From IMG/VR virus record IMGVR_UViG_3300011336_000170, positions 1 to 39,659 of that record: 39,659 nt of DNA, one strand, 5' to 3'. Position numbers and translations under genes: made by a program. The notes under the pieces are model-generated. The model searched no databases. It saw only the letters and a list, made by a program, of their open reading frames with translations, and was not told the DNA's origin. Positions 14,225-35,072 of the stretch are shown here, piece by piece. Source of the stretch: a virus. Its lineage: Duplodnaviria; Caudoviricetes. The stretch's first letter is position 1. Each line of letters starts with the position of its first letter.

Positions 14225-15415
14225 ATGACCACCTACACCAACATCTTTGGCGGCAGCAACATCTCTCCTGCAGAGATTAGCTACGCCACCGTCAGCCTGA
14301 CGGCCAATACAACTTTTGACTGGGCTCTTGAAACAGCCCCTTCGACAAACTTGATTGCTGGCATCATGGATGTCACGGCCACTGCGGGTCCTTGGAGCCT
14401 GACCTTGCCCAGTGCCCTGGAGGCATCAACTGGGCAAGCCATCCTGTTTAACAACGTTGGGGCCAATTCCTTTATCATTCGGAATGCGGCCGGGACGCAA
14501 GTAGCCGCACCTGCCGCCGGCCAAGTATGGCAGATCTACCTGACTGACAACACGACAGCAGGCGGTACCTGGCTTGCATTCCAGTTTGGCGCGTCCATCT
14601 CGGCAGCAAATGCGGCTTCCTTGGCCGGGACTGGCTTAGTCGCCATTGGTTCTCTCTTGTCCCTGGCCATGCCAGTCACGTTTTTTGGAACCAGCTACAC
14701 GGCCGGTATCGACGACCGGGCTAAGACATTTATATGGAATGGAGGAGCTGGTACTCTTACTAGCGCGGCCGCCGGAACCCTTGGAAACAACTGGTTTATC
14801 CAGCTTCGCAACGAAGGCACTGGAGCGCTTTTGGTAGACCCTCCGGGTTCTCAGACCATTAACGGGTCGTCTACCCTAAGCTTTCAGCCTGGTGATTCTG
14901 CCATTATCTTTACGGATGGCAGCAACTTTTATACCTTAGGGTATGGCCAATCGCCTGTCTTTGCGTTTGACTATACCTCTATTAGCGTGGCTGGAACAGG
15001 CAATTACGTCTTGTCAGGCAGTGAATTAAACCGCATTGCCTACAACTTTACAGGGGCCTTGACGGGCAACCGCGCGGTCATTGTGCCTCAAACTGTCCAG
15101 CAATACTGGGTGACCAACAGCACGACAGGTCCATATACGCTAACCATCAAGACCTCTATTGCTGCAGGTACGGCCATCAATCAAGGCTCTCGGGCTATCT
15201 TGTATTCCGATGGCAGCAATGTAGTGGCCGCAGATACTGGCGGCGTGGCCGTGCCTATCAACATCTCTGACGGTGGTACTGGAGCGACCACAGCAGGAAA
15301 TGCCTTGATTAACTTAGGCGGTACGGCAACGGGCATAGCTCTTTTTACAGCGGTATCTCAGGCCACTGCTCAGGTGGCCATCGGACTTGATCCAATTCAA
15401 GGCGGAACCTACTGA
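14225..15415 (+). CDS. Tail/fibre structural protein (396 aa)
   Basis: Three repeated beta modules ('TLPSA…N', 'DGSNF', 'DGSNV'), 'GGTGATTA…INLG'; ends in GGTY. Confidence 0.75.
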   Translation: MTTYTNIFGGSNISPAEISYATVSLTANTTFDWALETAPSTNLIAGIMDVTATAGPWSLTLPSALEASTGQAILFNNVGANSFIIRNAAGTQVAAPAAGQVWQIYLTDNTTAGGTWLAFQFGASISAANAASLAGTGLVAIGSLLSLAMPVTFFGTSYTAGIDDRAKTFIWNGGAGTLTSAAAGTLGNNWFIQLRNEGTGALLVDPPGSQTINGSSTLSFQPGDSAIIFTDGSNFYTLGYGQSPVFAFDYTSISVAGTGNYVLSGSELNRIAYNFTGALTGNRAVIVPQTVQQYWVTNSTTGPYTLTIKTSIAAGTAINQGSRAILYSDGSNVVAADTGGVAVPINISDGGTGATTAGNALINLGGTATGIALFTAVSQATAQVAIGLDPIQGGTY

Positions 15416-17061
15416 TGGCAACAACTCCAATCGTCCTTAAGTCGCTGCCTGGCATCAAGCGCGACGGCACCAGGTACGAGGGTGACTACTACGTTGACGG
15501 GCAGTGGGTCCGTTGGCAACGTGGCCTTCCTCGTAAGGTTGGAGGATATACAGTCATTAACCGCTACCTGACTGAAGTCAGTCGCGGAGTTAAGACGTTC
15601 ACAGAGAACGGATTGACCTACTTTCATTCTGGCAGTGCCAGCTTTGTTGAGCGTTTTACCATTGACGGCAGCGGCAACACGAGCCTGATTGCAGATCGTA
15701 CGCCAATAACGTATATGGTCGACGGCGATAATCTTTGGCAGTTTGACGTCATCTATGACGGTCAATCTATCCCTGCTGCCAACATGATCGTGGCACAAGT
15801 GGCCCCAAATGCGGGCTGTCTTTGCAATACTGACGGAGGCCAGATCTTTATTGGTTCGATGACGGGCACCGATCGCCTGACTGAAGTTACGACGTTTCCG
15901 GCTGGAGTAAGCGCTACTGGCGGAGTGGTTTCCTTGCATCCCTACCTGATGTACTTTGGAAACGACGGTGTAATCGGATGGTCAGTAGCAGGTGCTCCTA
16001 CAGACTTGACAGGTGCAGGTTCAGGGAATGCTCGCGTAGCGGGTCAAAAGATTGTCCGCGGCCTTGCTCTTAGGGGCGGTCCAGGCAATGCTCCCTCAGG
16101 CCTCTTTTGGAGCGCAGATGCGGTGATTCGCGGTTCGTTTGTCGGAGGCACCGAAGTCTTTCAGTTTGACACGATCAGCCCGTATTCCAGCATCTTGTCT
16201 GCGGCTTGTGTCATTGAGTATGACGGCCAATACTTCTGGTTGGGAACCGACCGCATGCTGATGTTTAACGGTGTGGTTCGTGAGATCCCCAACAACCTAA
16301 ACATCAACTACTTCTATGATGGCCTAAACAGGGCGGCTGCTCAACGGGTATGGGCCTTCAAGGTCCCTCGCTACGGTGAGATCTGGTGGTGTTATCCGCG
16401 TGGAGACGCAACTGAATGCACACACGCCATCATCTACAACGTCCGTGAGAACACCTGGTATGACACTGAGCTACCTAATGGTGGACGGACCGCTGGGGAG
16501 TGGTCTCCTTTGTACGCTGCACCATTTCTATGCGGCCTACAACCGTCTACTTTCGTGTCAAATAACCGAATTACAGAAGCCGGAGACCTTCGGATCACGC
16601 AAGACGATAATCAACGTGTTGTGGTCCCTGAGGAAGGCTACAAGGTCTGGCAGCACGAGCACGACGTCAACGAGATTGACGGCCAGTTTATCACGGCGGT
16701 TCCTTCATTCTTTGAGACAGCGGACATGAGCATGCTTGTCCCCCAAGGCGGATCTAAAAATAAGTGGATTCGGGTTGAAGCCATTGAGCCTGACTTTATA
16801 CAGTCTGAAAACATGACTGTCCAGCTGACAGGGCGAGCCAATGCCAAGGCTCTTGAGGTCCAGGGCCCAGAACGTGTAATCTACGCCACTCCAACAGACC
16901 CTTACGAGCAGATTGTTTGGTTCAAAGAAGAACGCCGCGAACTGCGGTTTAAGTTTACCTCCAACACTATCAATGGCGACTATCAAATGGGCCAGATCAT
17001 CGCGCATGTGGGCGAGGCCGATGGTTCTATGCTCGGTGGTGTTGCAGGGGGTTCCACGTGA
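15415..17061 (+). CDS. Tail tubular protein B / DNA stabilisation (P22 gp10-like nozzle) protein (548 aa)
   Basis: 'PGIKRDGT…WVRWQRGLPRKVGG', 'EIWWCYP…C…IYNVRENTW'; beta-propeller-like; position after the adaptor. Confidence 0.75.
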   Translation: MATTPIVLKSLPGIKRDGTRYEGDYYVDGQWVRWQRGLPRKVGGYTVINRYLTEVSRGVKTFTENGLTYFHSGSASFVERFTIDGSGNTSLIADRTPITYMVDGDNLWQFDVIYDGQSIPAANMIVAQVAPNAGCLCNTDGGQIFIGSMTGTDRLTEVTTFPAGVSATGGVVSLHPYLMYFGNDGVIGWSVAGAPTDLTGAGSGNARVAGQKIVRGLALRGGPGNAPSGLFWSADAVIRGSFVGGTEVFQFDTISPYSSILSAACVIEYDGQYFWLGTDRMLMFNGVVREIPNNLNINYFYDGLNRAAAQRVWAFKVPRYGEIWWCYPRGDATECTHAIIYNVRENTWYDTELPNGGRTAGEWSPLYAAPFLCGLQPSTFVSNNRITEAGDLRITQDDNQRVVVPEEGYKVWQHEHDVNEIDGQFITAVPSFFETADMSMLVPQGGSKNKWIRVEAIEPDFIQSENMTVQLTGRANAKALEVQGPERVIYATPTDPYEQIVWFKEERRELRFKFTSNTINGDYQMGQIIAHVGEADGSMLGGVAGGST

Positions 17062-17285
17062 TCACGCAACCTGTTATAATCGGATTGCGCGACTGGGCCG
17101 ATCAGATCGTTATGGATCTGTCAACCTACGGCGCACTCATGAGGCTGGACGATGAGGACAAGTGGCAAGAATGGGCACTACAGTTCTGCGTTATCTCAGG
17201 ACTAAGCCAAAAAAACGTTCCTGATCCATTTGGTTTCACTGACTGGCGTAGTTGGGCGCAACGATTTGTACAGATGGTGGACTAA
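17058..17285 (+). CDS. Trp-rich hypothetical protein (75 aa)
   Basis: GTGA overlap upstream and TAATG overlap downstream; W-x-x-W-A repeats. Confidence 0.7.
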   Translation: MITQPVIIGLRDWADQIVMDLSTYGALMRLDDEDKWQEWALQFCVISGLSQKNVPDPFGFTDWRSWAQRFVQMVD

Positions 17286-17575
17286 TGACCGATCAAGAAT
17301 TTATCGTGCTGCTGAATGAGGTAGCCAAGAAAGCCAGGCCATTTAACAGCGAGCTTCGAAGCATTGACTCCATGGAGATGATCCTTAAAGAGACTGGCTT
17401 AGACAGTCTTGACATGCTCATGTGCGTAGTCTATCTTTGCGAAATCTACGATGTAGAGGACGAAAAAAGCAAAGAAATGCTTGGCGAGACCCCGCAAGAT
17501 CTTTTCAACTTCCTGAAGGAATGGGGACGCAGACAACCTGCAGACCTAGACCAAGCCCGGGAGTGGTTCGTATGA
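17285..17575 (+). CDS. Acyl carrier protein (96 aa)
   Basis: Small acidic helical protein with GLDSLD phosphopantetheinylation motif (Ser codon 17405-17407); ATG 17285 overlaps the upstream TAA; directly upstream of a ketosynthase. Confidence 0.85.
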   Translation: MTDQEFIVLLNEVAKKARPFNSELRSIDSMEMILKETGLDSLDMLMCVVYLCEIYDVEDEKSKEMLGETPQDLFNFLKEWGRRQPADLDQAREWFV

Positions 17576-18693
17576 GAATCTTCCTCACAGAAAGCCGCAC
17601 TGCGAGCACTGAGGACACGACTCTTTTTGAAAACCATACTTTCCCCCAAAAGGTCCACCTGTTTCCTGAGACCTACAACAGGATCAAGACCGGCTTGGTC
17701 AATCCAGCCCATCAGGTAGCTGAAAAGGTCTTGGACCAAGAGCTTCTAAAGCTCCTCCGAGATACACAACCTGGCAAGACAGCCTTTATCTTGGCTGCTG
17801 GCAACAGCAATTTTGCTGGCGAAGGCTCTAAACTTAATAGAGAAAATGAGTGGACCTACAACTACAAGATCCTCCCGCTGTCCCTGACCCAGATCTACGC
17901 GGGTCGTGTGGCTGCGCAGTGCGGAGAGATTGACCACACGGCAACGGACGCCACGGCCTGTACCTCTAGCCTCAAGGCACTAATGGACGTTCAGACCCTG
18001 ATCAGGTTTTATGGCTTTGACCGTGTCATTGTACTGGCCATAGAGGACCAGGTCAACAATATGACTCTCCAATTCTTTGGAGAAGCTAAGGCAACCTTGA
18101 CCGAAAGCATGGCCGAGACTCACCAGGTGGTCCCCAGTGCCTTCGATTCAAAGAACTTTGGATTCTATATAGGTCAGGGAGCTGCGTTTGCCGTATTTGA
18201 GTCAGAAGAAGCCCTAAAGCGATCAAAACTGCGGGCAAGAGCCGAACTTTTGTCAGCTTGGACGGCAACAGAGGTTGCCAAAAATGCTATTGGACAACGA
18301 GAAGATGGACAGGGTTTTAGACGAGCTATCGAGGGCGCTCTTAAACTTTGTCAAATCTCCTCAGAACAAATTAAAATCGTTAAAACTCATGGTACCGGAA
18401 CCAGATCTAACAACGAGGCTGAAAAAGCTGCGCTGGAAGGGTTTTTGAGTGATTTTGTAGCAACATCGTACAAGCAGCGAATCGGCCATACGATGGGAGC
18501 GAGTGGATTGTTAGAAACCCTCTTGCTGTTCAATGATTTAGAAAAGGGAACTGTCCCGGGGATCTTGAATCGCAGCGAGGAGGATCATGTGTTCCTCTCT
18601 GAGGCGGTTGAAGCACCCGAAGGGGCAGTGCTAAGCTTGAGTGCTGGCATGGGCAACGTGTTCAGTGCTGCGCTTTTCAACATGAGGATCTAA
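17572..18693 (+). CDS. Beta-ketoacyl-ACP synthase (FabB/FabF-like, divergent; 373 aa)
   Basis: Catalytic Cys in 'TACTSS' (17959), His in 'KTHGTGT' (18388), Lys/His in 'KQRIGHTMGASG' (18487); 'GQGAA' motif; ATGA overlap with the ACP gene. Confidence 0.9.
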   Translation: MRIFLTESRTASTEDTTLFENHTFPQKVHLFPETYNRIKTGLVNPAHQVAEKVLDQELLKLLRDTQPGKTAFILAAGNSNFAGEGSKLNRENEWTYNYKILPLSLTQIYAGRVAAQCGEIDHTATDATACTSSLKALMDVQTLIRFYGFDRVIVLAIEDQVNNMTLQFFGEAKATLTESMAETHQVVPSAFDSKNFGFYIGQGAAFAVFESEEALKRSKLRARAELLSAWTATEVAKNAIGQREDGQGFRRAIEGALKLCQISSEQIKIVKTHGTGTRSNNEAEKAALEGFLSDFVATSYKQRIGHTMGASGLLETLLLFNDLEKGTVPGILNRSEEDHVFLSEAVEAPEGAVLSLSAGMGNVFSAALFNMRI

Positions 18694-18695
18694 TT

Positions 18696-19154
18696 ATGCC
18701 ACTCGTAGACAGCAGACAACAAATGCTAGATCTTGGCGAACTACTTAAGGTAGCAGCTGAGAACACAAAATCACAGTATCCTATGGAATTTGTGTACGCC
18801 TCCTTTGTGAAGGAGATTCAGATGCCTGATAGCAAGTTTTATCGCTATGGCAACACGGTCTACGTAGTGCATGCTTCGCCAAAAGATCCTCGCAAGGGTA
18901 TGTTTAGAGCGCTGAACGCAGATACCGCTCCTAATTTTATAGCTTCTGGTTTTGCTTTTGTAGTTGATTCTTACAAAGCAGGTCTTGACACGCTGGTCAC
19001 CCAGTTCAGCGACCAGAGCCTCATAAACATTTTCCGCAATGTTGCAAAAAATCCTCCTAATCCTGGCATGGGCTATAACGTGACCATGCTGAAGGACGGA
19101 CAATACCAAGTTGCTTTGCAACTCGGACAAAAACGTGAAGGAGCACAGCAATGA
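18696..19154 (+). CDS. Hypothetical protein, candidate GNAT-fold acyltransferase (152 aa)
   Basis: Coupled ORF. GNAT is inferred only from size, alpha/beta pattern and position just before the ejection proteins; no clear CoA-binding motif seen. Confidence 0.5.
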   Translation: MPLVDSRQQMLDLGELLKVAAENTKSQYPMEFVYASFVKEIQMPDSKFYRYGNTVYVVHASPKDPRKGMFRALNADTAPNFIASGFAFVVDSYKAGLDTLVTQFSDQSLINIFRNVAKNPPNPGMGYNVTMLKDGQYQVALQLGQKREGAQQ

Positions 19155-21175
19155 GTGCCGTAGTAGAGTTTGTTGAAGACGTTGTTGGCGGCGTAGTTGA
19201 AGCAGTTGGTGATGTTGTTGAAAGCATCGGCAATGTAATCAGCGACGTTGGAGTTGCCATTGACAAGTACGTCATTCAGCCCATCCTAGACGACCCCCTG
19301 TCAGCGATTGCTACGGTAGCAGCAGCAACGTTTTTAGGACCCGCCGCGGCAGCTTTTTTTGGAACGTCAGCTACGGTTGGTGTCGGCGTCGCGGCAGGCC
19401 TTGCTAATACAGCGGCAGGTCTGGTTCAAGGTGAAGACTTTGAAACTGCAATTAAAGGAGGCCTTGCTGCAGGAGTGGGTTCTTACGCCGGAGCAGAGCT
19501 TTTTGGTGGAGGCGGCAGTGAAATGTCTTCTCCAACACCAGACCCCCTTGATCAGTTGCTAGCGAATAACAACAATTTTGTTGACGTGCCGATGGACTCG
19601 CTTGCGTCTGCTCCTTCTGCCGTAACAAGCCCAGTTAGCTCGCCGAATATCACGACTACTGACTTGCCTCCAGCGGGCACTCCAACTAGCCTAGATGTAT
19701 CTGCCCCAACAACTACAGTACAGGCTTCGCCTCTTGAGTCAGTTGCTTCTCCGGCAAACGCGACAGCGGCTGCTTCAACTACTCCAAGCCCACTTCAATC
19801 GTTAAACACAACCGTCCCGCAGGTTACGGTACCTGAGTTTACGTTATCAGGTTTGGACACCCCGTTTACGTCGGACTACAGTCTGACAGGCGGCATGCAG
19901 TCAAGTGGTCCTGGTTTCAATATCTCTAACTTTACGCCTGCCGATTCGTTTGACATCTACGGCCAGCCTAACTATGACTTGACAGCTCCAGGAACTTCCG
20001 GCGGTCCTGGCATGCAGTTTTCAAGCAGTCCTAACGTTGCCCGCATGGGCGGAGGCCAAGGCTTGACGGCGGATGTAAGTGGGCTGCCGCAGTACATGGA
20101 GAACGGAACTGCTACCACTTTCCAAGGAGCAAATGGTCGGACCTACGGCAACGCAACTCCTGACATGACAATTGGCGCAAGAAGCATGACTCCAACGCCT
20201 GATACCATTACCTACGGGGCCACGGAGAATATGGGCACCCCGGGTGTCTGGGATCAAATCACCGATGGAAACTTTACTGATGCAGCTAAAAACATTGGCA
20301 ATAAAGCCATTGACAAGGCCGTTGGTTGGTATGACAAGGCGAGCCCTTGGGAAATTGCAGGAGCTGGTCTTGGGGCAGCTACTTTGCTCGGTGGATCTGG
20401 AGCCCCTCCTGCTGGACAACCTCCAAAAGGTTCAACGCAAGACAAAAACTTTAACAAGTCACTTGACCTATACACATATATGCGCGACAAGGCAAACTAT
20501 CAAGGCGATCTCACTAAGTACGGTCAAGTCGGTGAACCAAATGCTAGCGAGCACCAATACTTCCAAAATACTAGATTCGTACCAGTCCCAATTGGAGCCA
20601 AGATGGGCGGCCTTATCCAGATGAAACATTTTGCGCAAGGCGGTCAAGCTCAAGGCATGCAAGATCCACGTAGAGCCCAGATGATGCAGGCCATGGCGCA
20701 GCAGCGTCCTGCTGGTCAAGGTGGTCCTATGGGCATGGCTCAGGGACGCCCTCCAATGATGCAAGGTATGCCTCAAGGACGTCCTCAGATGCCCCAGCAA
20801 GGTGGACCGCAAGGTATGCCTCAAGGACGTCCTCAGATGCCCCAACGTCCTCGCGACCCAAAGACAGCCTACTACCAATATGGCAACCCTCCTGCAAAAG
20901 CCATGGCAATGGGAGGTCTTAACCAAGTGCACAGCATGAGAATTGGCGGTGGCGCAGACGGTCGGTCAGATGACGTGAATGCCGTCTTGTCTGATGGCGA
21001 GTACGTATTTGACTCAGAATCGGTGGCAATGCTTGGCAACGGATCCTCTAAGGCAGGGGCCGCCAAACTTGATGAAATGCGCTCTAAACTGCGTCAACAC
21101 AAAGGACAAGCCTTGGCCAGCGGCAAAATCAGCCCTGATGCCAAAAGTCCACTAGCTTATTTGAAGGGAGCTTAA
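19151..21175 (+). CDS. Internal virion / ejection protein with hydrophobic Gly-zipper N-terminus and C-terminal 'SDGEYV' domain (674 aa)
   Basis: Amphipathic N-terminus, hydrophobic stretch at ~aa 50-120, S/T/P-rich linker, Q/M/P-rich repeats, 'DGRSDDVNAVLSDGEYVF'. Confidence 0.7.
   Translation: MSAVVEFVEDVVGGVVEAVGDVVESIGNVISDVGVAIDKYVIQPILDDPLSAIATVAAATFLGPAAAAFFGTSATVGVGVAAGLANTAAGLVQGEDFETAIKGGLAAGVGSYAGAELFGGGGSEMSSPTPDPLDQLLANNNNFVDVPMDSLASAPSAVTSPVSSPNITTTDLPPAGTPTSLDVSAPTTTVQASPLESVASPANATAAASTTPSPLQSLNTTVPQVTVPEFTLSGLDTPFTSDYSLTGGMQSSGPGFNISNFTPADSFDIYGQPNYDLTAPGTSGGPGMQFSSSPNVARMGGGQGLTADVSGLPQYMENGTATTFQGANGRTYGNATPDMTIGARSMTPTPDTITYGATENMGTPGVWDQITDGNFTDAAKNIGNKAIDKAVGWYDKASPWEIAGAGLGAATLLGGSGAPPAGQPPKGSTQDKNFNKSLDLYTYMRDKANYQGDLTKYGQVGEPNASEHQYFQNTRFVPVPIGAKMGGLIQMKHFAQGGQAQGMQDPRRAQMMQAMAQQRPAGQGGPMGMAQGRPPMMQGMPQGRPQMPQQGGPQGMPQGRPQMPQRPRDPKTAYYQYGNPPAKAMAMGGLNQVHSMRIGGGADGRSDDVNAVLSDGEYVFDSESVAMLGNGSSKAGAAKLDEMRSKLRQHKGQALASGKISPDAKSPLAYLKGA
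20761..20844 (+). repeat. 36-bp perfect direct repeat, period 48
   Basis: GCAAGGTATGCCTCAAGGACGTCCTCAGATGCCCCA at 20761-20796 and 20809-20844 (QGMPQGRPQMPQ twice). Confidence 0.9.
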
Positions 21176-21176
21176 T

Positions 21177-22598
21177 ATGGGAGTTCTAGACTTTCTGTTC
21201 CAAGGGGCTCCACCTGCATCGGTCACGACGTATGGTGAGACAACCTCTAACGTTCCTGCTTGGTATTCTGACTATACGCAGGGCTTGATCAGTCGAGCCA
21301 ACTCGATTGCCGCAGAGCCCTATCAGCCATACAGCCAGGCCAGGATTGCTGGCTTTGATCCACTTCAGACGGAGGCGTACAATAAGACTGCCGGATTATC
21401 TGGCCAGTACCAGCCCATGCTTGACATGTCGCAAAATGCGATCTACAACGCAGGGGCGGGTAGCTCTGTTGACGCGGCATCTCCGTACATCCAGCAAGCT
21501 CTCCAATATAATCCAGCAAGTGCAGCTTCTGGAGCTATTGGTCAAGCTGGAAACTTAATAGGCCAAAGCTACGGCGACGCTAGCGCCCTTGCCCAACCGT
21601 ACTTCAATCAGGCCAGTCAATACACCCAGCAAGGAGCAGGCGGCACGGCTCAATTGGCCACGCCTTACATGCAGCAGGCTTCTCAACTTGCAAATCAAGG
21701 TGCCCAGACTGGCTTAGGTGGCATACAAGACTACATGAACCCATACACTGACCAGGTGGTCAATCGTATCGGAGAGTTGGCTGGTCGCAATCTAAAAGAA
21801 AACTTGCTTCCTAACATTCAGGACAAGGCTATCCAAGCCGGTACCTTTGGCGGAAGCCGTAGCGGTGAAGCTATCGGACGGGCTTTGCGTGACAGCCAGG
21901 AATCGGCTTTGGCCCAACAGTCTTCAGCCCTTCAACAAGGTTATGGGCAAGCCGGTCAACAACTTCAAGCTGATCGCGCTCGCCAGTTGCAAGCCGCTCA
22001 GCAACAATCGGCCTTTGGTCAGCAGACGGCGGGTTTGTCGGCAGCAGACCAGCAACGTCTCATGGCAGCAGGTCAACAGCAGGCGGCCATTGGCCAATCG
22101 ACTGCTGGCTTGGAAGGCGCCGACCTTGCCAGATACGGTCAAGCCGGCTCTCAGATGGGGGCTCTTGGCCAGATGCAGGGAACTTTGGCAGGAGCCGCTG
22201 GTACTCAAAACTTGCAAGCTGCTCAGCAGATGGGAACGCTGTCTGGTCAAGACTTTGCCCGCCAGTTGCAGTCAGGACAGGCTATGGGAGCCCTTGGTCA
22301 ACAGACGCAACAGATGGGTATGCAGAATATCAGCGCCTTGGAAGCAGCCGGAGCAACTCAACAGCAACAGCAGCAACGCTCGTTGGATACGGCTTACCAA
22401 GACTTCCTCAACCAACGCGAGTACGACCGCAACAACATTGCCTTCTTGAACGCCTCTGTTCGAGGCCTGCAAGTGCCCACTTCCACAACCACCGAGTCAA
22501 CAGGACCCGCAAGCGTCTATCAACCTTCACCATTGTCGCAGCTTGGCTCAACATTGGCTTCTGGTTATGGCCTCAGCAAACTGTTTAGCGGAAAATAA
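21177..22598 (+). CDS. Gln/Ala/Gly-rich DNA ejection (pilot-like) protein (473 aa)
   Basis: GGGAG RBS; 'YMNPYTDQV', 'GTFGGSR', long Q-rich helices typical of ejected proteins; starts MGVLDFLF. Confidence 0.75.
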   Translation: MGVLDFLFQGAPPASVTTYGETTSNVPAWYSDYTQGLISRANSIAAEPYQPYSQARIAGFDPLQTEAYNKTAGLSGQYQPMLDMSQNAIYNAGAGSSVDAASPYIQQALQYNPASAASGAIGQAGNLIGQSYGDASALAQPYFNQASQYTQQGAGGTAQLATPYMQQASQLANQGAQTGLGGIQDYMNPYTDQVVNRIGELAGRNLKENLLPNIQDKAIQAGTFGGSRSGEAIGRALRDSQESALAQQSSALQQGYGQAGQQLQADRARQLQAAQQQSAFGQQTAGLSAADQQRLMAAGQQQAAIGQSTAGLEGADLARYGQAGSQMGALGQMQGTLAGAAGTQNLQAAQQMGTLSGQDFARQLQSGQAMGALGQQTQQMGMQNISALEAAGATQQQQQQRSLDTAYQDFLNQREYDRNNIAFLNASVRGLQVPTSTTTESTGPASVYQPSPLSQLGSTLASGYGLSKLFSGK

Positions 22599-31555: not shown

Positions 31556-32410
31556 ATGGCAAACGCCAGAGGAAAGTCCATCGACAATACCCACCTGAGC
31601 ATTGATCAGGCGGAAGAGCGCGGTTTCATTCATCGCGACTACATCGCCCACTGCCTACGTTGGACCCACGTGGCCAAGTGGATGGGTAACCCCAAGCATC
31701 GCAAAGACTGCAAGTTGCTTGACATTGGCTGCGGCAAGGACGTACCATTGGCCAAGATGCTCATGACGAGCCGCATGGCGTCTGACGGTCTTGACTACAT
31801 CGGCATTGACTACAACAAGCTGGAAATGCCTAAGGCCTTTGAGAATACCAAGTTCAAGCCAACTCTGATTGGCAACGTTGCCTTCCCAGACTGCACGCTG
31901 CCTCATGACAAGTTTGACGTGATCACAAGCTTTGAGGTCCTTGAACACGTTGAACCACTGCATGCCTATAAGATGCTTGAAGGTATCCGCGATCGCTTGG
32001 CCCCTGAAGGTATTGCCTTCTTGTCCACGCCAGTCTACGACGCAAAGGTTGGGGCGGCAGATAACCACGTCAACGAGATGACTTACGAAGTGATGCAATT
32101 GATGCTGCACAAGGCAGGCTTGGAAGTTGACGCGCACTTTGGTACTTTTGCCTCCATCAAAGACTACAAGGAAATGATTGAAAAAGATGACCTCGATGCA
32201 GTGTTCAGCCGCCTGCGTGATTACTACGACAGCAACTACTTGGCAACTATCTTTGCTCCGCTCTATCCCCACCGATCACGTAATGTGCTTTGGCGAGTCA
32301 AACTGCCGAAAAGCCAAGAGATGTTCAGCCCCGGCAAGTTTGCAGACCTTACTAAGCCACTCTCCAGCAGCGAAGCTTGGCAGCCCCTCTTTGACTACCT
32401 TGGAGAGTGA
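31556..32410 (+). CDS. Class I SAM-dependent methyltransferase (284 aa)
   Basis: AGGAG RBS; motif I 'LLDIGCG', 'YIGID', 'FDVITSFEVLEHV', 'LAPEGIAFLSTP'; small-molecule type, no DPPY/NPPY motif. Confidence 0.9.
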   Translation: MANARGKSIDNTHLSIDQAEERGFIHRDYIAHCLRWTHVAKWMGNPKHRKDCKLLDIGCGKDVPLAKMLMTSRMASDGLDYIGIDYNKLEMPKAFENTKFKPTLIGNVAFPDCTLPHDKFDVITSFEVLEHVEPLHAYKMLEGIRDRLAPEGIAFLSTPVYDAKVGAADNHVNEMTYEVMQLMLHKAGLEVDAHFGTFASIKDYKEMIEKDDLDAVFSRLRDYYDSNYLATIFAPLYPHRSRNVLWRVKLPKSQEMFSPGKFADLTKPLSSSEAWQPLFDYLGE

Positions 32411-32802
32411 TCATGGACATGTTTGACATGGTTGCCGATTTTCATAAAAAGTTTGGACTGGAGCCTACTGCTCAGCCTAACTTTCCAGTTGAAGAGATCT
32501 GGAAACTCAAGAATATGCACATGAGAGAGGAGCTAGACGAGCTTAGGGCGGCTGCGTACGTTGGTAACCTTGAGGAGTACTTTGACGGCCTGATTGACCT
32601 TGTCTACGTAGCTCTTGGGGCGGCCTACTTAGCAGGCCTTCCATTCAACGAAGGCTTTAAGCGGGTGCACGAAGCGAACATGAAAAAAGTGCGCGCTTTA
32701 AGGCAAGAAGATAGCAAACGCGGGTCTACCTATGATATAGTGAAACCTGCAGGATTCGTGGCCCCAACGCTTACGGACCTCATCAGAAAGGAGAAAGAAT
32801 GA
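32407..32802 (+). CDS. MazG-like / PRA-PH all-alpha NTP pyrophosphohydrolase (start could be ATG 32413)
   Basis: 'V.DFHKKFG', 'EELDEL', 'DGLIDLVYVALG', 'VHEANMKK', 'KP.GF'. Confidence 0.85.
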   Translation: MIMDMFDMVADFHKKFGLEPTAQPNFPVEEIWKLKNMHMREELDELRAAAYVGNLEEYFDGLIDLVYVALGAAYLAGLPFNEGFKRVHEANMKKVRALRQEDSKRGSTYDIVKPAGFVAPTLTDLIRKEKE

Positions 32803-33791
32803 AAGGCATTATTGTCATTGATGGTTGCGATGGAACAGGTAAGACTACTCTTGCTAAAGCTATTTGCGACAAGCATGATGGCGTCTACATTCACAACACG
32901 TACCGCTGGCCTTCAAAGATGCCGCTGTATCACACAGCTGCTTTGCATCGCGCATTGAAGATTGCTCGTACACGTCTTGTAGTGATTGATCGCTTGTGGA
33001 TGAGTGAAGCCATCTATGCCGAAGTCTATCGCGACGGCAGCCCTTGGCCTAACATGGGGCGCATGATTGATCGCATTATCCGTAAGGTCGGAGGTATGTA
33101 CATCTTGGCGCAATCTCCACAAGGCCACAAAGAAAAGTTTGAGCAGCTGAAGACAGAGCGCAAAGAGATGTACGACAACGTTGATCGTGTACGTGAACGC
33201 TTTGATCAGTTGTTTGAAGGTGGCTTTGCAGGTCATGATAGCGATTACGCCCAACAGCTGTCTGTGTTTGGTATGCTCAAGCGCGACGACGTCCTTCCAT
33301 ATCGTTATGACATTGAAGGTACAAACCTTGATGTCTATATCGATATGGTGATGTCAGTCCTTGATTCTCGCATGGCTAAGCAATATGCTCCAGCCTTGGA
33401 CCTGCGTACAGAAAACTTTGCAGGCCACGTGCATGAGGCCAACTTCATCTTTGTAGGAGACAAGGCCAATAGCAAATTTAGAGCTGTCAGCTGGCCCTTC
33501 TATGATTTTGGCAATTCAAGCGAGTTTTTTGCTAGTGCTCTTCATGAGTTGACATTTGACGAGACTAGAGCTATTTACATAAACGCTCATGATGAGGATG
33601 GTCTCACGCACATTGATCGATGCCTTTCAGCAAAGCCGTATCTGCACTTGATATGTCTTGGCAATGACGCGCATGCCTCAGTGCACTCACTCACTCGCCG
33701 CATCTCTAACATCTATCATCCGTCATACGCAAAGCGGTTTAACAAAGCCGATGAATTTTTGCTTCAACTTGAGGAGGCTCTCAATGGTTAA
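32799..33791 (+). CDS. P-loop dNMP kinase (thymidylate-kinase-like) fused to a C-terminal uracil-DNA-glycosylase-like domain (330 aa)
   Basis: Walker A 'GCDGTGKTT', 'IDR..MSE.IY'; C-terminal 'FIFVGDKAN…WPF…SS.F…YINA…ICLGNDA…YHPSY' follows UDG-fold motif order. Confidence 0.75.
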   Translation: MKGIIVIDGCDGTGKTTLAKAICDKHDGVYIHNTYRWPSKMPLYHTAALHRALKIARTRLVVIDRLWMSEAIYAEVYRDGSPWPNMGRMIDRIIRKVGGMYILAQSPQGHKEKFEQLKTERKEMYDNVDRVRERFDQLFEGGFAGHDSDYAQQLSVFGMLKRDDVLPYRYDIEGTNLDVYIDMVMSVLDSRMAKQYAPALDLRTENFAGHVHEANFIFVGDKANSKFRAVSWPFYDFGNSSEFFASALHELTFDETRAIYINAHDEDGLTHIDRCLSAKPYLHLICLGNDAHASVHSLTRRISNIYHPSYAKRFNKADEFLLQLEEALNG

Positions 33792-34578
33792 CACGACAAA
33801 CATGAATTGGCAAGGCTTGCTTGATATTGTCATGCACAACGGCAGCGAGACCAGCCCCCGTGGCAAAAAGACAAAAGAGCTCTTGGGCTTTAAGTCGATG
33901 ATTGACATGAATCAGCCGGTCATCACCATCAAGGAACGCGGTCTTGGCTACAAGTTTATGGCAGCAGAAGCAGCTTGGATTATGTCAGGCGACAACCGCG
34001 TTAGCACCATTGCACGTTTTAGTAAGCAGATCAGCAACTTTTCTGATGACGGCATCTTTTTCTACGGGGCATACGGTCCAAGAATACGCGACCAACTGGC
34101 ACACGTTGTCCAGTCGCTATTGGCTGATCCTGACACACGTCAGGCTGTCATCACGATATGGCGTCCAAACCCTCGTGCTTCAAGAGACATCCCTTGCACG
34201 ATCAGCTGCCAGTTTGTAATTCGATCAGGCATGCTCCATTGCTTCATGAACATGCGCTCCTCTGATGCTTGGCTTGGCGTGCCTTACGACTGGTTCAACT
34301 TCAGCATGTTGTCAGCAGGTATTGCCTTGCTTCTTCGTCAGAAAGGTTTAACTGTCCAGCTTGGCTCCCTGCATTTTTATGCTGCAAGCCAGCACCTGTA
34401 CGAAGACAACTGGTTCAAGGTAGATGCTTGCTTAAACGGAGAGATCCTTGGAGACTACGCTCCGATCGACCTTGAATACTTTGAAGACTACGACCACCTA
34501 GTTAATCACTTGTGGACACTGGCAGGTGGCCATGTTCACAACGGTTTTCTCAAGGAATTATCAACATGGAAAGGATAG
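33784..34578 (+). CDS. Thymidylate-synthase superfamily enzyme, probably dCMP-directed (hydroxy)methyltransferase (264 aa)
   Basis: GAGGAGG RBS; 'YGAYGPR', 'TRQAVITIW', catalytic 'DIPC', 'MRSSDAWLGVPYD', 'SQHLYE'; Asp at the specificity position. Confidence 0.85.
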   Translation: MVNTTNMNWQGLLDIVMHNGSETSPRGKKTKELLGFKSMIDMNQPVITIKERGLGYKFMAAEAAWIMSGDNRVSTIARFSKQISNFSDDGIFFYGAYGPRIRDQLAHVVQSLLADPDTRQAVITIWRPNPRASRDIPCTISCQFVIRSGMLHCFMNMRSSDAWLGVPYDWFNFSMLSAGIALLLRQKGLTVQLGSLHFYAASQHLYEDNWFKVDACLNGEILGDYAPIDLEYFEDYDHLVNHLWTLAGGHVHNGFLKELSTWKG

Positions 34579-35072
34579 GCAAAGATGAATACTTTTCGCA
34601 ATTGACTTTACTCGTTGCTCGACGGAGTACTTGTGCTAGGAGGAGTGTGGGCTGCGTTCTCGTATCTCATCGTGGGCATATTCTCGGTACTGGTTATAAC
34701 GGGGTGCCTCGTGGTCATACTCATTGCACTGACGTTCGCTGTCCCGGTGCTTCTCTTCCTTCGGGCACTGGCCTGGACGTATGTGAAGCTATTCATGCGG
34801 AACAAAACGCTCTCCTCCAATGTAAGGACGTTGAACAAATAGACACTGCCTACGTCACTGCTATGCCTTGCATGACTTGTACAAAGCTTTTGCTGAACAC
34901 AAGCTGCAGGCGCATAGTCTACGTTGAGCCATACCCTCACGACACTGCAAAACAACTCTGGATTAAAAATGGACGTATCATCCTATCAACCGCCGAAGCA
35001 CTTTCCCAACCTGTTAGTAGCAAAGAGGATCGCAATCGACTGCGAGACGCGCGACCCGAACTTAATGACTAA
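34566..35072 (+). CDS. dCMP deaminase family protein (168 aa)
   Basis: AAGGA RBS; 'RSTCARRSVG', 'TGYNG', Zn motifs 'HAEQNAL' and 'PCMTC'. Confidence 0.92.
   Translation: MERIGKDEYFSQLTLLVARRSTCARRSVGCVLVSHRGHILGTGYNGVPRGHTHCTDVRCPGASLPSGTGLDVCEAIHAEQNALLQCKDVEQIDTAYVTAMPCMTCTKLLLNTSCRRIVYVEPYPHDTAKQLWIKNGRIILSTAEALSQPVSSKEDRNRLRDARPELND

Follow-up and report, generated by a model that had tools for sequence, protein, structure and literature searches.

T7-type short-tailed phages carry a small gene, internal virion protein A (IVP-A; gp13 in T7), between the tail nozzle and the first ejection gene; the passages on it in PMC4819975 and PMC6775973 give neither a substrate nor a donor, and the latter places a GNAT gene in the same slot of cobaviruses. 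T7 ejects gp14 before its other proteins, and gp14 goes into the outer membrane, as a passage of PMC8954989 describes. In Salmonella, the SPI-1 system employs IacP, a dedicated acyl carrier protein (ACP) for which the passages concerned in PMC5279801 describe acylation of the translocon protein SipB, a promoting effect on membrane insertion and binding to FabB. Here we describe a cassette in IMG/VR record IMGVR_UViG_3300011336_000170, a 39.7-kb viral stretch of 71% estimated completeness (its full length is called the window below), in which an ACP, a ketosynthase (KS) and a 152-residue open reading frame (ORF152) lie ahead of likely ejection genes; a large group of uncultured short-tailed phages carries this trio in this place. 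We put at roughly 0.5 the probability that ORF152 N-acylates the N-terminus of ej1, the putative first ejection protein, with a lipid-length chain taken from the phage acyl-ACP. The genes concerned are:

15415..17061, plus strand: tail nozzle (tubular tail B-like), matching phrog_3287, virion structural protein, at E 2.7e-29
17058..17285, plus strand: orf75, a conserved frame of 75 aa between nozzle and ACP
17285..17575, plus strand: ACP of 96 aa with the motif GLDSLD and Ser41; its family profile matches solved ACPs
17572..18693, plus strand: KS, 373 aa from its ATG, PF00109/PF02801, KAS I/II fold
18696..19154, plus strand: ORF152, predicted GNAT fold, in the IVP-A (T7 gp13) slot by predicted structure and gene position
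19151..21175, plus strand: ej1, 674 aa, putative first ejection protein (IVP-B slot), with an ejection role assigned by position
21177..22598, plus strand: ej2, 473 aa, matching phrog_4287, 'DNA ejection protein', at E 2.3e-11

ORF152 is predicted to have a GNAT alpha/beta fold. For its AlphaFold2 model (predicted local distance difference test score 87), Foldseek returned 35 matches at E <=0.001 (3.6e-5 to 1e-3), all but one of those listed being acyltransferases, and VIA assigned it to GNAT (Z 11.6, root-mean-square deviation 3.0, 128 aligned residues), with the N-alpha-acetyltransferase RimI at Z 11.3; a viral model named 'internal virion protein A' matched at E 6.7e-5 with a template-modelling (TM) score of 0.49. 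The acyltransferase fold that an earlier reading of this DNA (the original prediction) had proposed for the 152-residue frame is thus borne out. At the level of profiles, ORF152 belongs to no Pfam or PHROG family; PF11090, the IVP-A family, was not among the families matched by 82 members at E up to 1 and gave no match in record G428, and the ESM Atlas offered only unnamed clusters, at 0.85-0.87. Gly52, Asn53, Asn74 and Asp76 are invariant in 82 aligned rows, down to 23% identity, and therefore suggest an active site. Two specific assignments were tried and rejected: homology to HlyC (hhalign probability <1%, no PF02794 match, no Ser-x-x-His) and to LuxI (no LuxI-family Pfam match in 82 members; TofI matched only at the level of fold, TM 0.41-0.47). 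One further ORF152 match, G441:34515-34964, contains an internal stop.

The model also bears on the donor. At the junction of beta4 and alpha3 it has a three-residue turn (residue 74 closes strand 4 and residue 78 opens helix 3), the length of the segment is the same in 230/230 homologues and residues 72-82 are glycine-free in 214/230; the extended glycine-rich loop that binds the phosphates of coenzyme A (CoA) in CoA-dependent GNATs is absent. This junction is where the CoA pyrophosphate loop sits, and the ACP-using HlyC is without it, according to a passage of PMC9703596; the corresponding passage of PMC8339906 describes ApxIC in the same way. Since the glycine-rich loop is missing, ORF152 is unlikely to bind CoA in the usual way. 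Loop loss, taken with the co-inheritance described next, suggests an ACP as donor and HlyC-like use of acyl-ACP on a protein amine. Prediction of an ORF152-ACP complex (82-row alignments, controls left unfolded) scored 0.00 in two runs and carries no weight for or against.

Joint inheritance is the strongest sign that ORF152 and the ACP work together, and on that ground we regard such a partnership as probable. The KS is absent from 9/80 loci recovered by the ORF152 scan, and all nine keep an ACP with DSLD; eight of these hold a short, diverged KS remnant, and the ninth (L101, from another clade) holds none. In five of the KS-less records (40-77% complete), a search for a KS elsewhere found only the remnant. 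The ratio of nonsynonymous to synonymous substitution rates for the ACP is 0.08 in seven KS-less phages (18/21 pairs usable) versus 0.06 in ten KS-bearing relatives (39/45 pairs); this low ratio after loss of the KS indicates that the ACP has a job without a phage KS.

In the nozzle tree the eight remnant-bearing phages fall at five separate positions, with two phages next to that of the window, and they form one clade in both the ACP and the ORF152 trees. We applied approximately unbiased (AU) tests to 23 loci, comprising seven KS-less (the short L072 and L101 were left out) and 16 KS-bearing ones. The maximum-likelihood trees of ACP and ORF152 contain the KS-less clade, which is rejected by the fibre (p = 3e-5), the nozzle (1e-6), orf75 (2e-47), ej2 (8e-48) and ej1 (0.005 for codons 1-45; 3e-7 for codons 46-140); because these other genes reject it, ACP and ORF152 travel together. 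In sliding windows the swapped block begins where the ACP does and ends with ORF152 or just past it, and we saw no crossover between KS remnant and ORF152 that would have left ORF152 with its own ejection genes. Five ORF152 residues, defined on the eight KS-less loci, mark them, and more than two of the five occur in 0/209 KS-adjacent ORF152 sequences. L101 has a long ORF152 branch that may be inflated by a C-terminal extension and was not relied on. Recombination of both genes as one block supports the proposed coupling of ACP to ORF152.

Consistent with an authentic carrier, the ACP family profile matches solved ACPs (best E 2.5e-5), and Asp40-Ser41, from the DSL motif whose serine, at the beginning of helix II, is the pantetheine site, is present in 288/288 distinct homologues; PF00550 itself is matched by 19/82 family members, the window's own copy not among these. 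Residue 50, also in helix II, is Tyr or Phe in 273/280 KS-linked copies and His or Gln in 8/8 distinct KS-less copies (Tyr/Phe 0/8), including the independent loss. Because Tyr/Phe50 tracks the presence of the KS, Tyr50 is likely to contact it.

The KS appears catalytically intact, as the original prediction had it: Cys130, His273, Lys301 and His306 are invariant in 29/29 aligned close homologues and kept across the family (98 rows) in 96, 98, 98 and 97 members, respectively, and the predicted model has a thiolase-type fold (TM 0.75-0.81). Identity to FabF is 25-30%, with AGMGN in place of the FabF GFGG loop; the family comprises about 35 full-length clusters at 50% identity, is separated by a score gap from polyketide synthase (PKS) and FabF domains, and sits on a long branch apart from four FabF-like outgroup rows. 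We therefore rejected FabF/FabB orthology, that is, a host-derived auxiliary metabolic gene (AMG), and the prediction that the KS is no near-copy of host fab genes stands. By our estimate it has matches in ~700 IMG/VR stretches. We found no cultured member of the phage group, and one uncultured record exceeds 30% KS identity. MW202545 (L053), the sole annotated phage record with the KS, is labelled Siphoviridae and has an ejection gene named 'coronavirus S2 glycoprotein', both of which look like misannotation.

The window's 39 scanned frames include no ketoreductase, dehydratase, enoylreductase, malonyl transferase or phosphopantetheinyl transferase (PPTase), as had been stated. Among related records, PPTase (PF01648) was found in 0/30, malonyl transferase (PF00698) in 0/28 and a FabG-type reductase (PF13561) in 0/28, so host enzymes must serve. 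A complete type II fatty-acid or PKS set was not found, for want of these three families; dehydratases were not searched genome-wide, and one FabZ was seen (L374).

The candidate acceptor is the alpha-amine of ej1 Ser2 after Met removal. Here we classify ej1 as a putative ejection protein from its position, its acidic amphipathic N-terminal helix and the hydrophobic segment that follows (about residues 50-70); it has no informative PHROG match. Across 115 distinct N-termini, position 2 is Ser in 70, Gly in 36, Ala in 6 and Thr in 3, followed by Ala (92) and then Val (106), with no Cys in the first 40 residues (115/115) and no conserved first Lys. In 81/81 non-redundant loci position 2 is one of these four residues, as against 21/81 for the ACP, 7/78 for the KS and 20/78 for ORF152; entropy at positions 3 and 4 is 1.07 and 0.6 bits versus 3.13 and 2.26 in the next gene. 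Ser, Gly, Ala and Thr at position 2 permit Met removal, and a free alpha-amine on ej1 is expected on that account. Of the two candidate acceptors proposed, M-SAVVEFV (19151) is the conserved one. The second candidate put forward, M-GVLDFLF (21177) of ej2, is weak: relatives start with MSVLDF, MAFTDF, MSDLFQ or MADLFQ. N-acylation of penetration proteins reportedly occurs in picornavirus VP4 and reovirus mu1, and the original prediction drew on these cases; read as glycine myristoylation, the analogy is not supported here, with Gly at position 2 in only 25/81 ej1 and 11/60 copies of the next gene. Since Gly is not required at ej1 position 2, eukaryotic-type myristoylation is not what these N-termini indicate.

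How firmly the cassette is tied to the ejection genes can be judged from its synteny, for which counts cover all loci fetched, with distinct KS and enough flank, in a sample biased by the queries. ORF152 directly follows the KS in 44/52 loci of the first scan (the other eight end inside the KS), an arrangement beyond chance; overall, the ACP adjoins the KS in 294/296 loci and ORF152 does so for 229/304 distinct KS. Most non-adjacent cases belong to a phage clade in which ACP-KS has shifted behind the helicase, in the replication block; these copies nest among virion-block copies in the KS tree, which makes the virion-block position the apparent older state. In four of ten relocated-type records searched, ORF152 lies in the virion block at a distance from the KS and is followed by ej1 with the same kind of start. 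The other six gave no ORF152 match; all are incomplete, and the stretches of G406, G409 and G410 exclude the nozzle region. The prediction that ACP and KS always lie beside ejection genes thus fails for the 75 KS without adjacent ORF152 and survives in part, in that the four relocated-pair records keep ORF152 in the virion block.

Near-complete KS-bearing records contain ORF152 in 27/28 cases; 13 of these had been picked via ORF152, and the fair count is 14/15. The one miss, G454 (L520:1252-2389), is T7-like; it combines a deep-branch ACP-KS with a gp13-like gene that matches PF11090 weakly and precedes an ejection gene whose product begins Met-Cys, possibly another acylation site. Five records with a lone ORF152 showed no KS, and at 21-41% completeness are uninformative. 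In L047:1161-3097, the ej1-like start after ORF152 switches to unrelated head and tail genes; this contig is likely to be chimeric, and its row was dropped from later ej1 profiles.

We scanned 185,579 species genomes with the KS and obtained 10 loci: three phage-like contigs of metagenome-assembled genomes (MAGs), two distant FabF-like genes, a short contig with ACP-KS only (L133) and the loci L127, L128, L131 and L132. The last two, from Burkholderiales MAGs, have the order HlyC-like, ACP, KS, HlyC ahead of an RTX-repeat gene, with TolC close by too:

L131:3775-7548 and L132:7283-14364: bacterial HlyC-ACP-KS-HlyC clusters; the RTX region of L132 spans two frames

In the KS tree, L131 and L132 are sister to the phage clade (FastTree support 1.0 for the joint clade), and the gene order suggests a dedicated ACP-KS pair for an RTX system, of which our literature search found no description. 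Where this KS family has recognisable cellular partners, these are protein acyltransferases. Compared with the ej1 N-terminal matrix, the RTX N-termini ranked 1/806 starts in L132 and 72/806 in L131, and the ej1 hidden Markov model matches neither; the likeness is only a hint. No further bacterial cluster was found in plasmids, and among 400 genomes of G001's class (one genome unscored) the single hit was G001 itself; looking up 20 of the about 35 KS family representatives yielded neither an organism nor a gene context. The position of L127 and L128 within the phage KS clade suggests that Betaproteobacteria acquired the pair from phages, which hints at this class as the host group.

Deep branches of the KS tree have other partners. 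In unrelated phages, ACP-KS with a ferritin-like gene (AurF/acyl-ACP desaturase type) lies directly behind tail-fibre genes (L306:4278-7339; L323:4981-7712; L336:4339-7309), and at L374:5519-7372 a relocated ACP-KS is followed by a FabZ-type dehydratase (PF07977, E 5.8e-30). Such neighbours argue for a KS that builds real acyl chains and show that the module can also serve other ends. Genes of 144-197 aa beside deep-branch pairs, 144-190 aa at the three tail-fibre loci, could be placed in no Pfam or PHROG family and resembled neither ORF152 nor HlyC in profile comparisons, and a 190-aa gene beside one pair had no usable ESM Atlas match. In another phage type, ACP, a DUF2269 membrane protein and KS lie right before the portal gene (L316:4402-7002; L338:86-2701).

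In the window itself, the main genes all lie on the plus strand and run from head and tail genes through lysis, adaptor, fibre and nozzle to four large putative ejection genes and then nucleotide and replication genes. 'Nozzle' is a name given by position; its homologue in MW202545 carries the annotation 'phage stabilization protein'. The translational coupling described earlier is all present in the sequence, with an overlap TAATG at 17285, ATGA between ACP and KS at 17572, a 2-nt gap between KS and ORF152 (18694-18695) and ATGA between ORF152 and ej1 at 19151. The first of these overlaps belongs to orf75 and the ACP, because the 75-aa frame at 17058-17285 separates nozzle from ACP; the predicted order of nozzle, cassette and first ejection gene holds, with orf75 intervening. 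This Trp-rich protein matches no Pfam or PHROG family and is inherited with the nozzle, not with the ACP-ORF152 cassette.

Outside the cassette, positions 31556-35072 encode consecutively an S-adenosylmethionine methyltransferase, a MazG/PRA-PH-like pyrophosphatase, a thymidylate-kinase-like protein, thymidylate synthase and dCMP deaminase, followed by DNA polymerase A; this row could be a base-modification cluster instead of plain dTTP supply. Several of the head and ejection proteins repeatedly show short motifs that end in Gly-Gly, for example AKGG, AQGG and ADGG (1486-2145, 20600-20930 and the ends of ej3 and ej4), and ej1 has Gln/Met/Pro-rich repeats near 20690-20860; as a guess, these motifs and repeats are possibly packaging or cleavage signals.

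From these observations we infer a scheme, its every chemical step, chain, acceptor and purpose included. A host PPTase would arm Ser41 of the ACP and host FabD would supply malonyl, both being needed because the phages carry neither. Judging from its catalytic residues, the KS would load a host-pool acyl chain on Cys130 and condense it with malonyl on the phage ACP, so that the chain on this private carrier would be two carbons longer and possibly left as 3-oxo or 3-hydroxy; in KS-less relatives, a host KS would load the phage ACP. ORF152, on the evidence of its fold and co-inheritance, would then bind acyl-ACP, not CoA, and after Met removal would acylate ej1 at Ser2 (or at the Gly, Ala or Thr that relatives have there). 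The acylated amphipathic N-terminus may aid core assembly or outer-membrane insertion at ejection. As profiles show ORF152 to be no HlyC homologue, the phage would have combined the donor module with a GNAT of its own from the IVP-A slot.

Several observations weigh against this scheme. Codons 1-45 of ej1 are not co-inherited with the ACP-ORF152 block (AU p 0.005, as above). Eight of the nine KS-less phages stem from one deletion, so the residues they share count only once, and close linkage on the DNA could by itself account for some of the block. Small residues at position 2 are also frequent in the two genes that follow (48/60 and 28/40). The fold is silent on the donor, most top structural matches being acetyl-CoA enzymes. 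T7-type phages run the IVP-A slot without a phage ACP, the passages of PMC4819975 describing none. The bacterial HlyC-ACP-KS-HlyC cluster rests on two MAGs and, because ORF152 has no profile similarity to HlyC-like proteins, is only an analogy for the transferase step. Apparently chromosomal ACP-KS pairs (L127, L128, L138, L139, L142) have no adjoining acyltransferase. The pair is also mobile, with the 75 of 304 KS counted above away from ORF152, and its neighbours include desaturase-like genes on deep branches and FabZ beside one relocated copy.

Some of these points would fit an enzyme that uses phage acyl-ACP on a different acceptor, be it an internal Lys or another residue in one of the ejection or tail proteins, a small molecule or a lipid of the host envelope. 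The co-inherited block leaves out the start of ej1, deep-branch ACP-KS pairs adjoin tail fibres, and the Foldseek matches include small-molecule GNATs (Rv1347c, TofI, the NcdE domain), all three of which we presume to prefer a donor of the acyl-ACP type. ORF152 nevertheless stays directly before ej1 even where ACP-KS has been relocated, and the ej1 N-terminus is constrained, lacking both Cys in its first 40 residues and any conserved early Lys. HlyC-type enzymes do acylate internal lysines, as a passage of PMC8339906 notes. On balance, we think an acceptor elsewhere unlikely.

We judge it similarly improbable that ACP and KS are a mobile plug-in to host fatty-acid synthesis, an AMG pair that landed in the late operon beside an ordinary, unconnected IVP-A morphogenesis factor. 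ACP and KS do relocate together, both to the replication block and to bacterial chromosomes, the ACP almost always beside the KS, with desaturase-like and FabZ neighbours on occasion; a GNAT in the IVP-A slot is general in podoviruses in the passages of PMC4819975 and PMC6775973, and phage acpP and fabF are described as AMGs in the relevant part of PMC8224337. Against this, after loss of the KS the ACP persists under purifying selection and is inherited together with ORF152 but not with orf75, the neighbour on its other side; the virion-block position appears older, with relocations nested inside it; the KS is far from FabF in identity, and the sister KSs keep company with protein acyltransferase genes; and ORF152 is present in all but one of the 15 near-complete records picked via the KS.

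Finally, N-alpha-acetylation and glycine myristoylation differ in their rules at position 2, and Ser, Gly, Ala or Thr there suits the former better, as do RimI, RimL, Ard1 and NAA80 high among the structural matches; a short group only, with the KS decarboxylating malonyl-ACP to acetyl-ACP or making C4 and ORF152 an ACP-dependent N-terminal acetyl- or short-acyltransferase, is nonetheless very unlikely, given that Cys130, which pure decarboxylation does not need, is kept in nearly all family members, that relatives pair the module with desaturase-like genes or FabZ, which implies longer chains, and that a private carrier for acetate is hard to justify.

If N-acylation of ej1 is correct, a phage-encoded lipid modification of a virion entry protein would be the bacteriophage counterpart of acylated penetration proteins, and the ~700 viral stretches estimated to carry this KS would leave the 'fatty-acid AMG' bin. 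IVP-A/gp13, an acetyltransferase-like morphogenesis factor, would gain a direct test, also possible in T7. More broadly and only tentatively, the IVP-A slot may in general hold an ACP-dependent N-acyltransferase for the outer-membrane ejection protein, using a host carrier where the phage has none, with the present phages lipidating their first ejection protein through a recruited bacterial ACP-KS module. Natural KS-plus and KS-less cassettes are a ready pair for asking which chain the KS makes.

Our literature search, with most subscription papers and supplements outside its scope, found neither an acylated phage ejection protein nor this cassette; gene tables in supplements could list these genes as fabF/acpP AMGs. 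Protein acylation by a dedicated ACP is already known, and it is the phage version that we did not find described.

Of the known systems, FabF/FabB with AcpP resemble the phage pair in thiolase-type KS fold, in Cys-His-His plus Lys and in an adjacent ACP. Mycobactin MbtL/MbtK (Rv1347c) and the LuxI-type synthases share the GNAT fold, and Rv1347c and TofI are Foldseek matches; MbtK and the LuxI-type enzymes, which we take to use an acyl carrier as donor, acylate small molecules, unlike what we propose for ORF152. Prophage acpP-fabF-fabG genes are read as AMGs in the part of PMC8224337 that treats them, whereas the cassette described here comes with no fabG, fabD or PPTase in 28 near-complete records. 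In the passages of PMC4819975 and PMC6775973, IVP-A (PF11090) is, like ORF152, a small GNAT-fold gene between nozzle and first ejection gene; ORF152 differs in its lack of a PF11090 match, its resemblance being at the level of fold only, and in its coupling to a phage ACP and KS. HlyC and the other toxin-activating acyltransferases (PF02794), as passages of PMC8339906 and PMC9703596 present them, have a GNAT-like fold without CoA-binding elements and an acyl-ACP donor, and ORF152 is similar in fold and loop loss; they share no profile similarity with it, and they use the housekeeping ACP and internal lysines. IacP/SipB, to go by the same passages of PMC5279801, likewise has a dedicated ACP in the operon of an injection machine, dependent on host PPTase and fatty-acid synthesis, with a membrane-penetrating target and with FabB proposed to load the carrier, as the KS would in the phage. 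In that system an internal Cys accepts the acyl group and the KS belongs to the host, whereas the phage cassette brings its own KS, a GNAT-fold gene and a candidate N-terminal amine.

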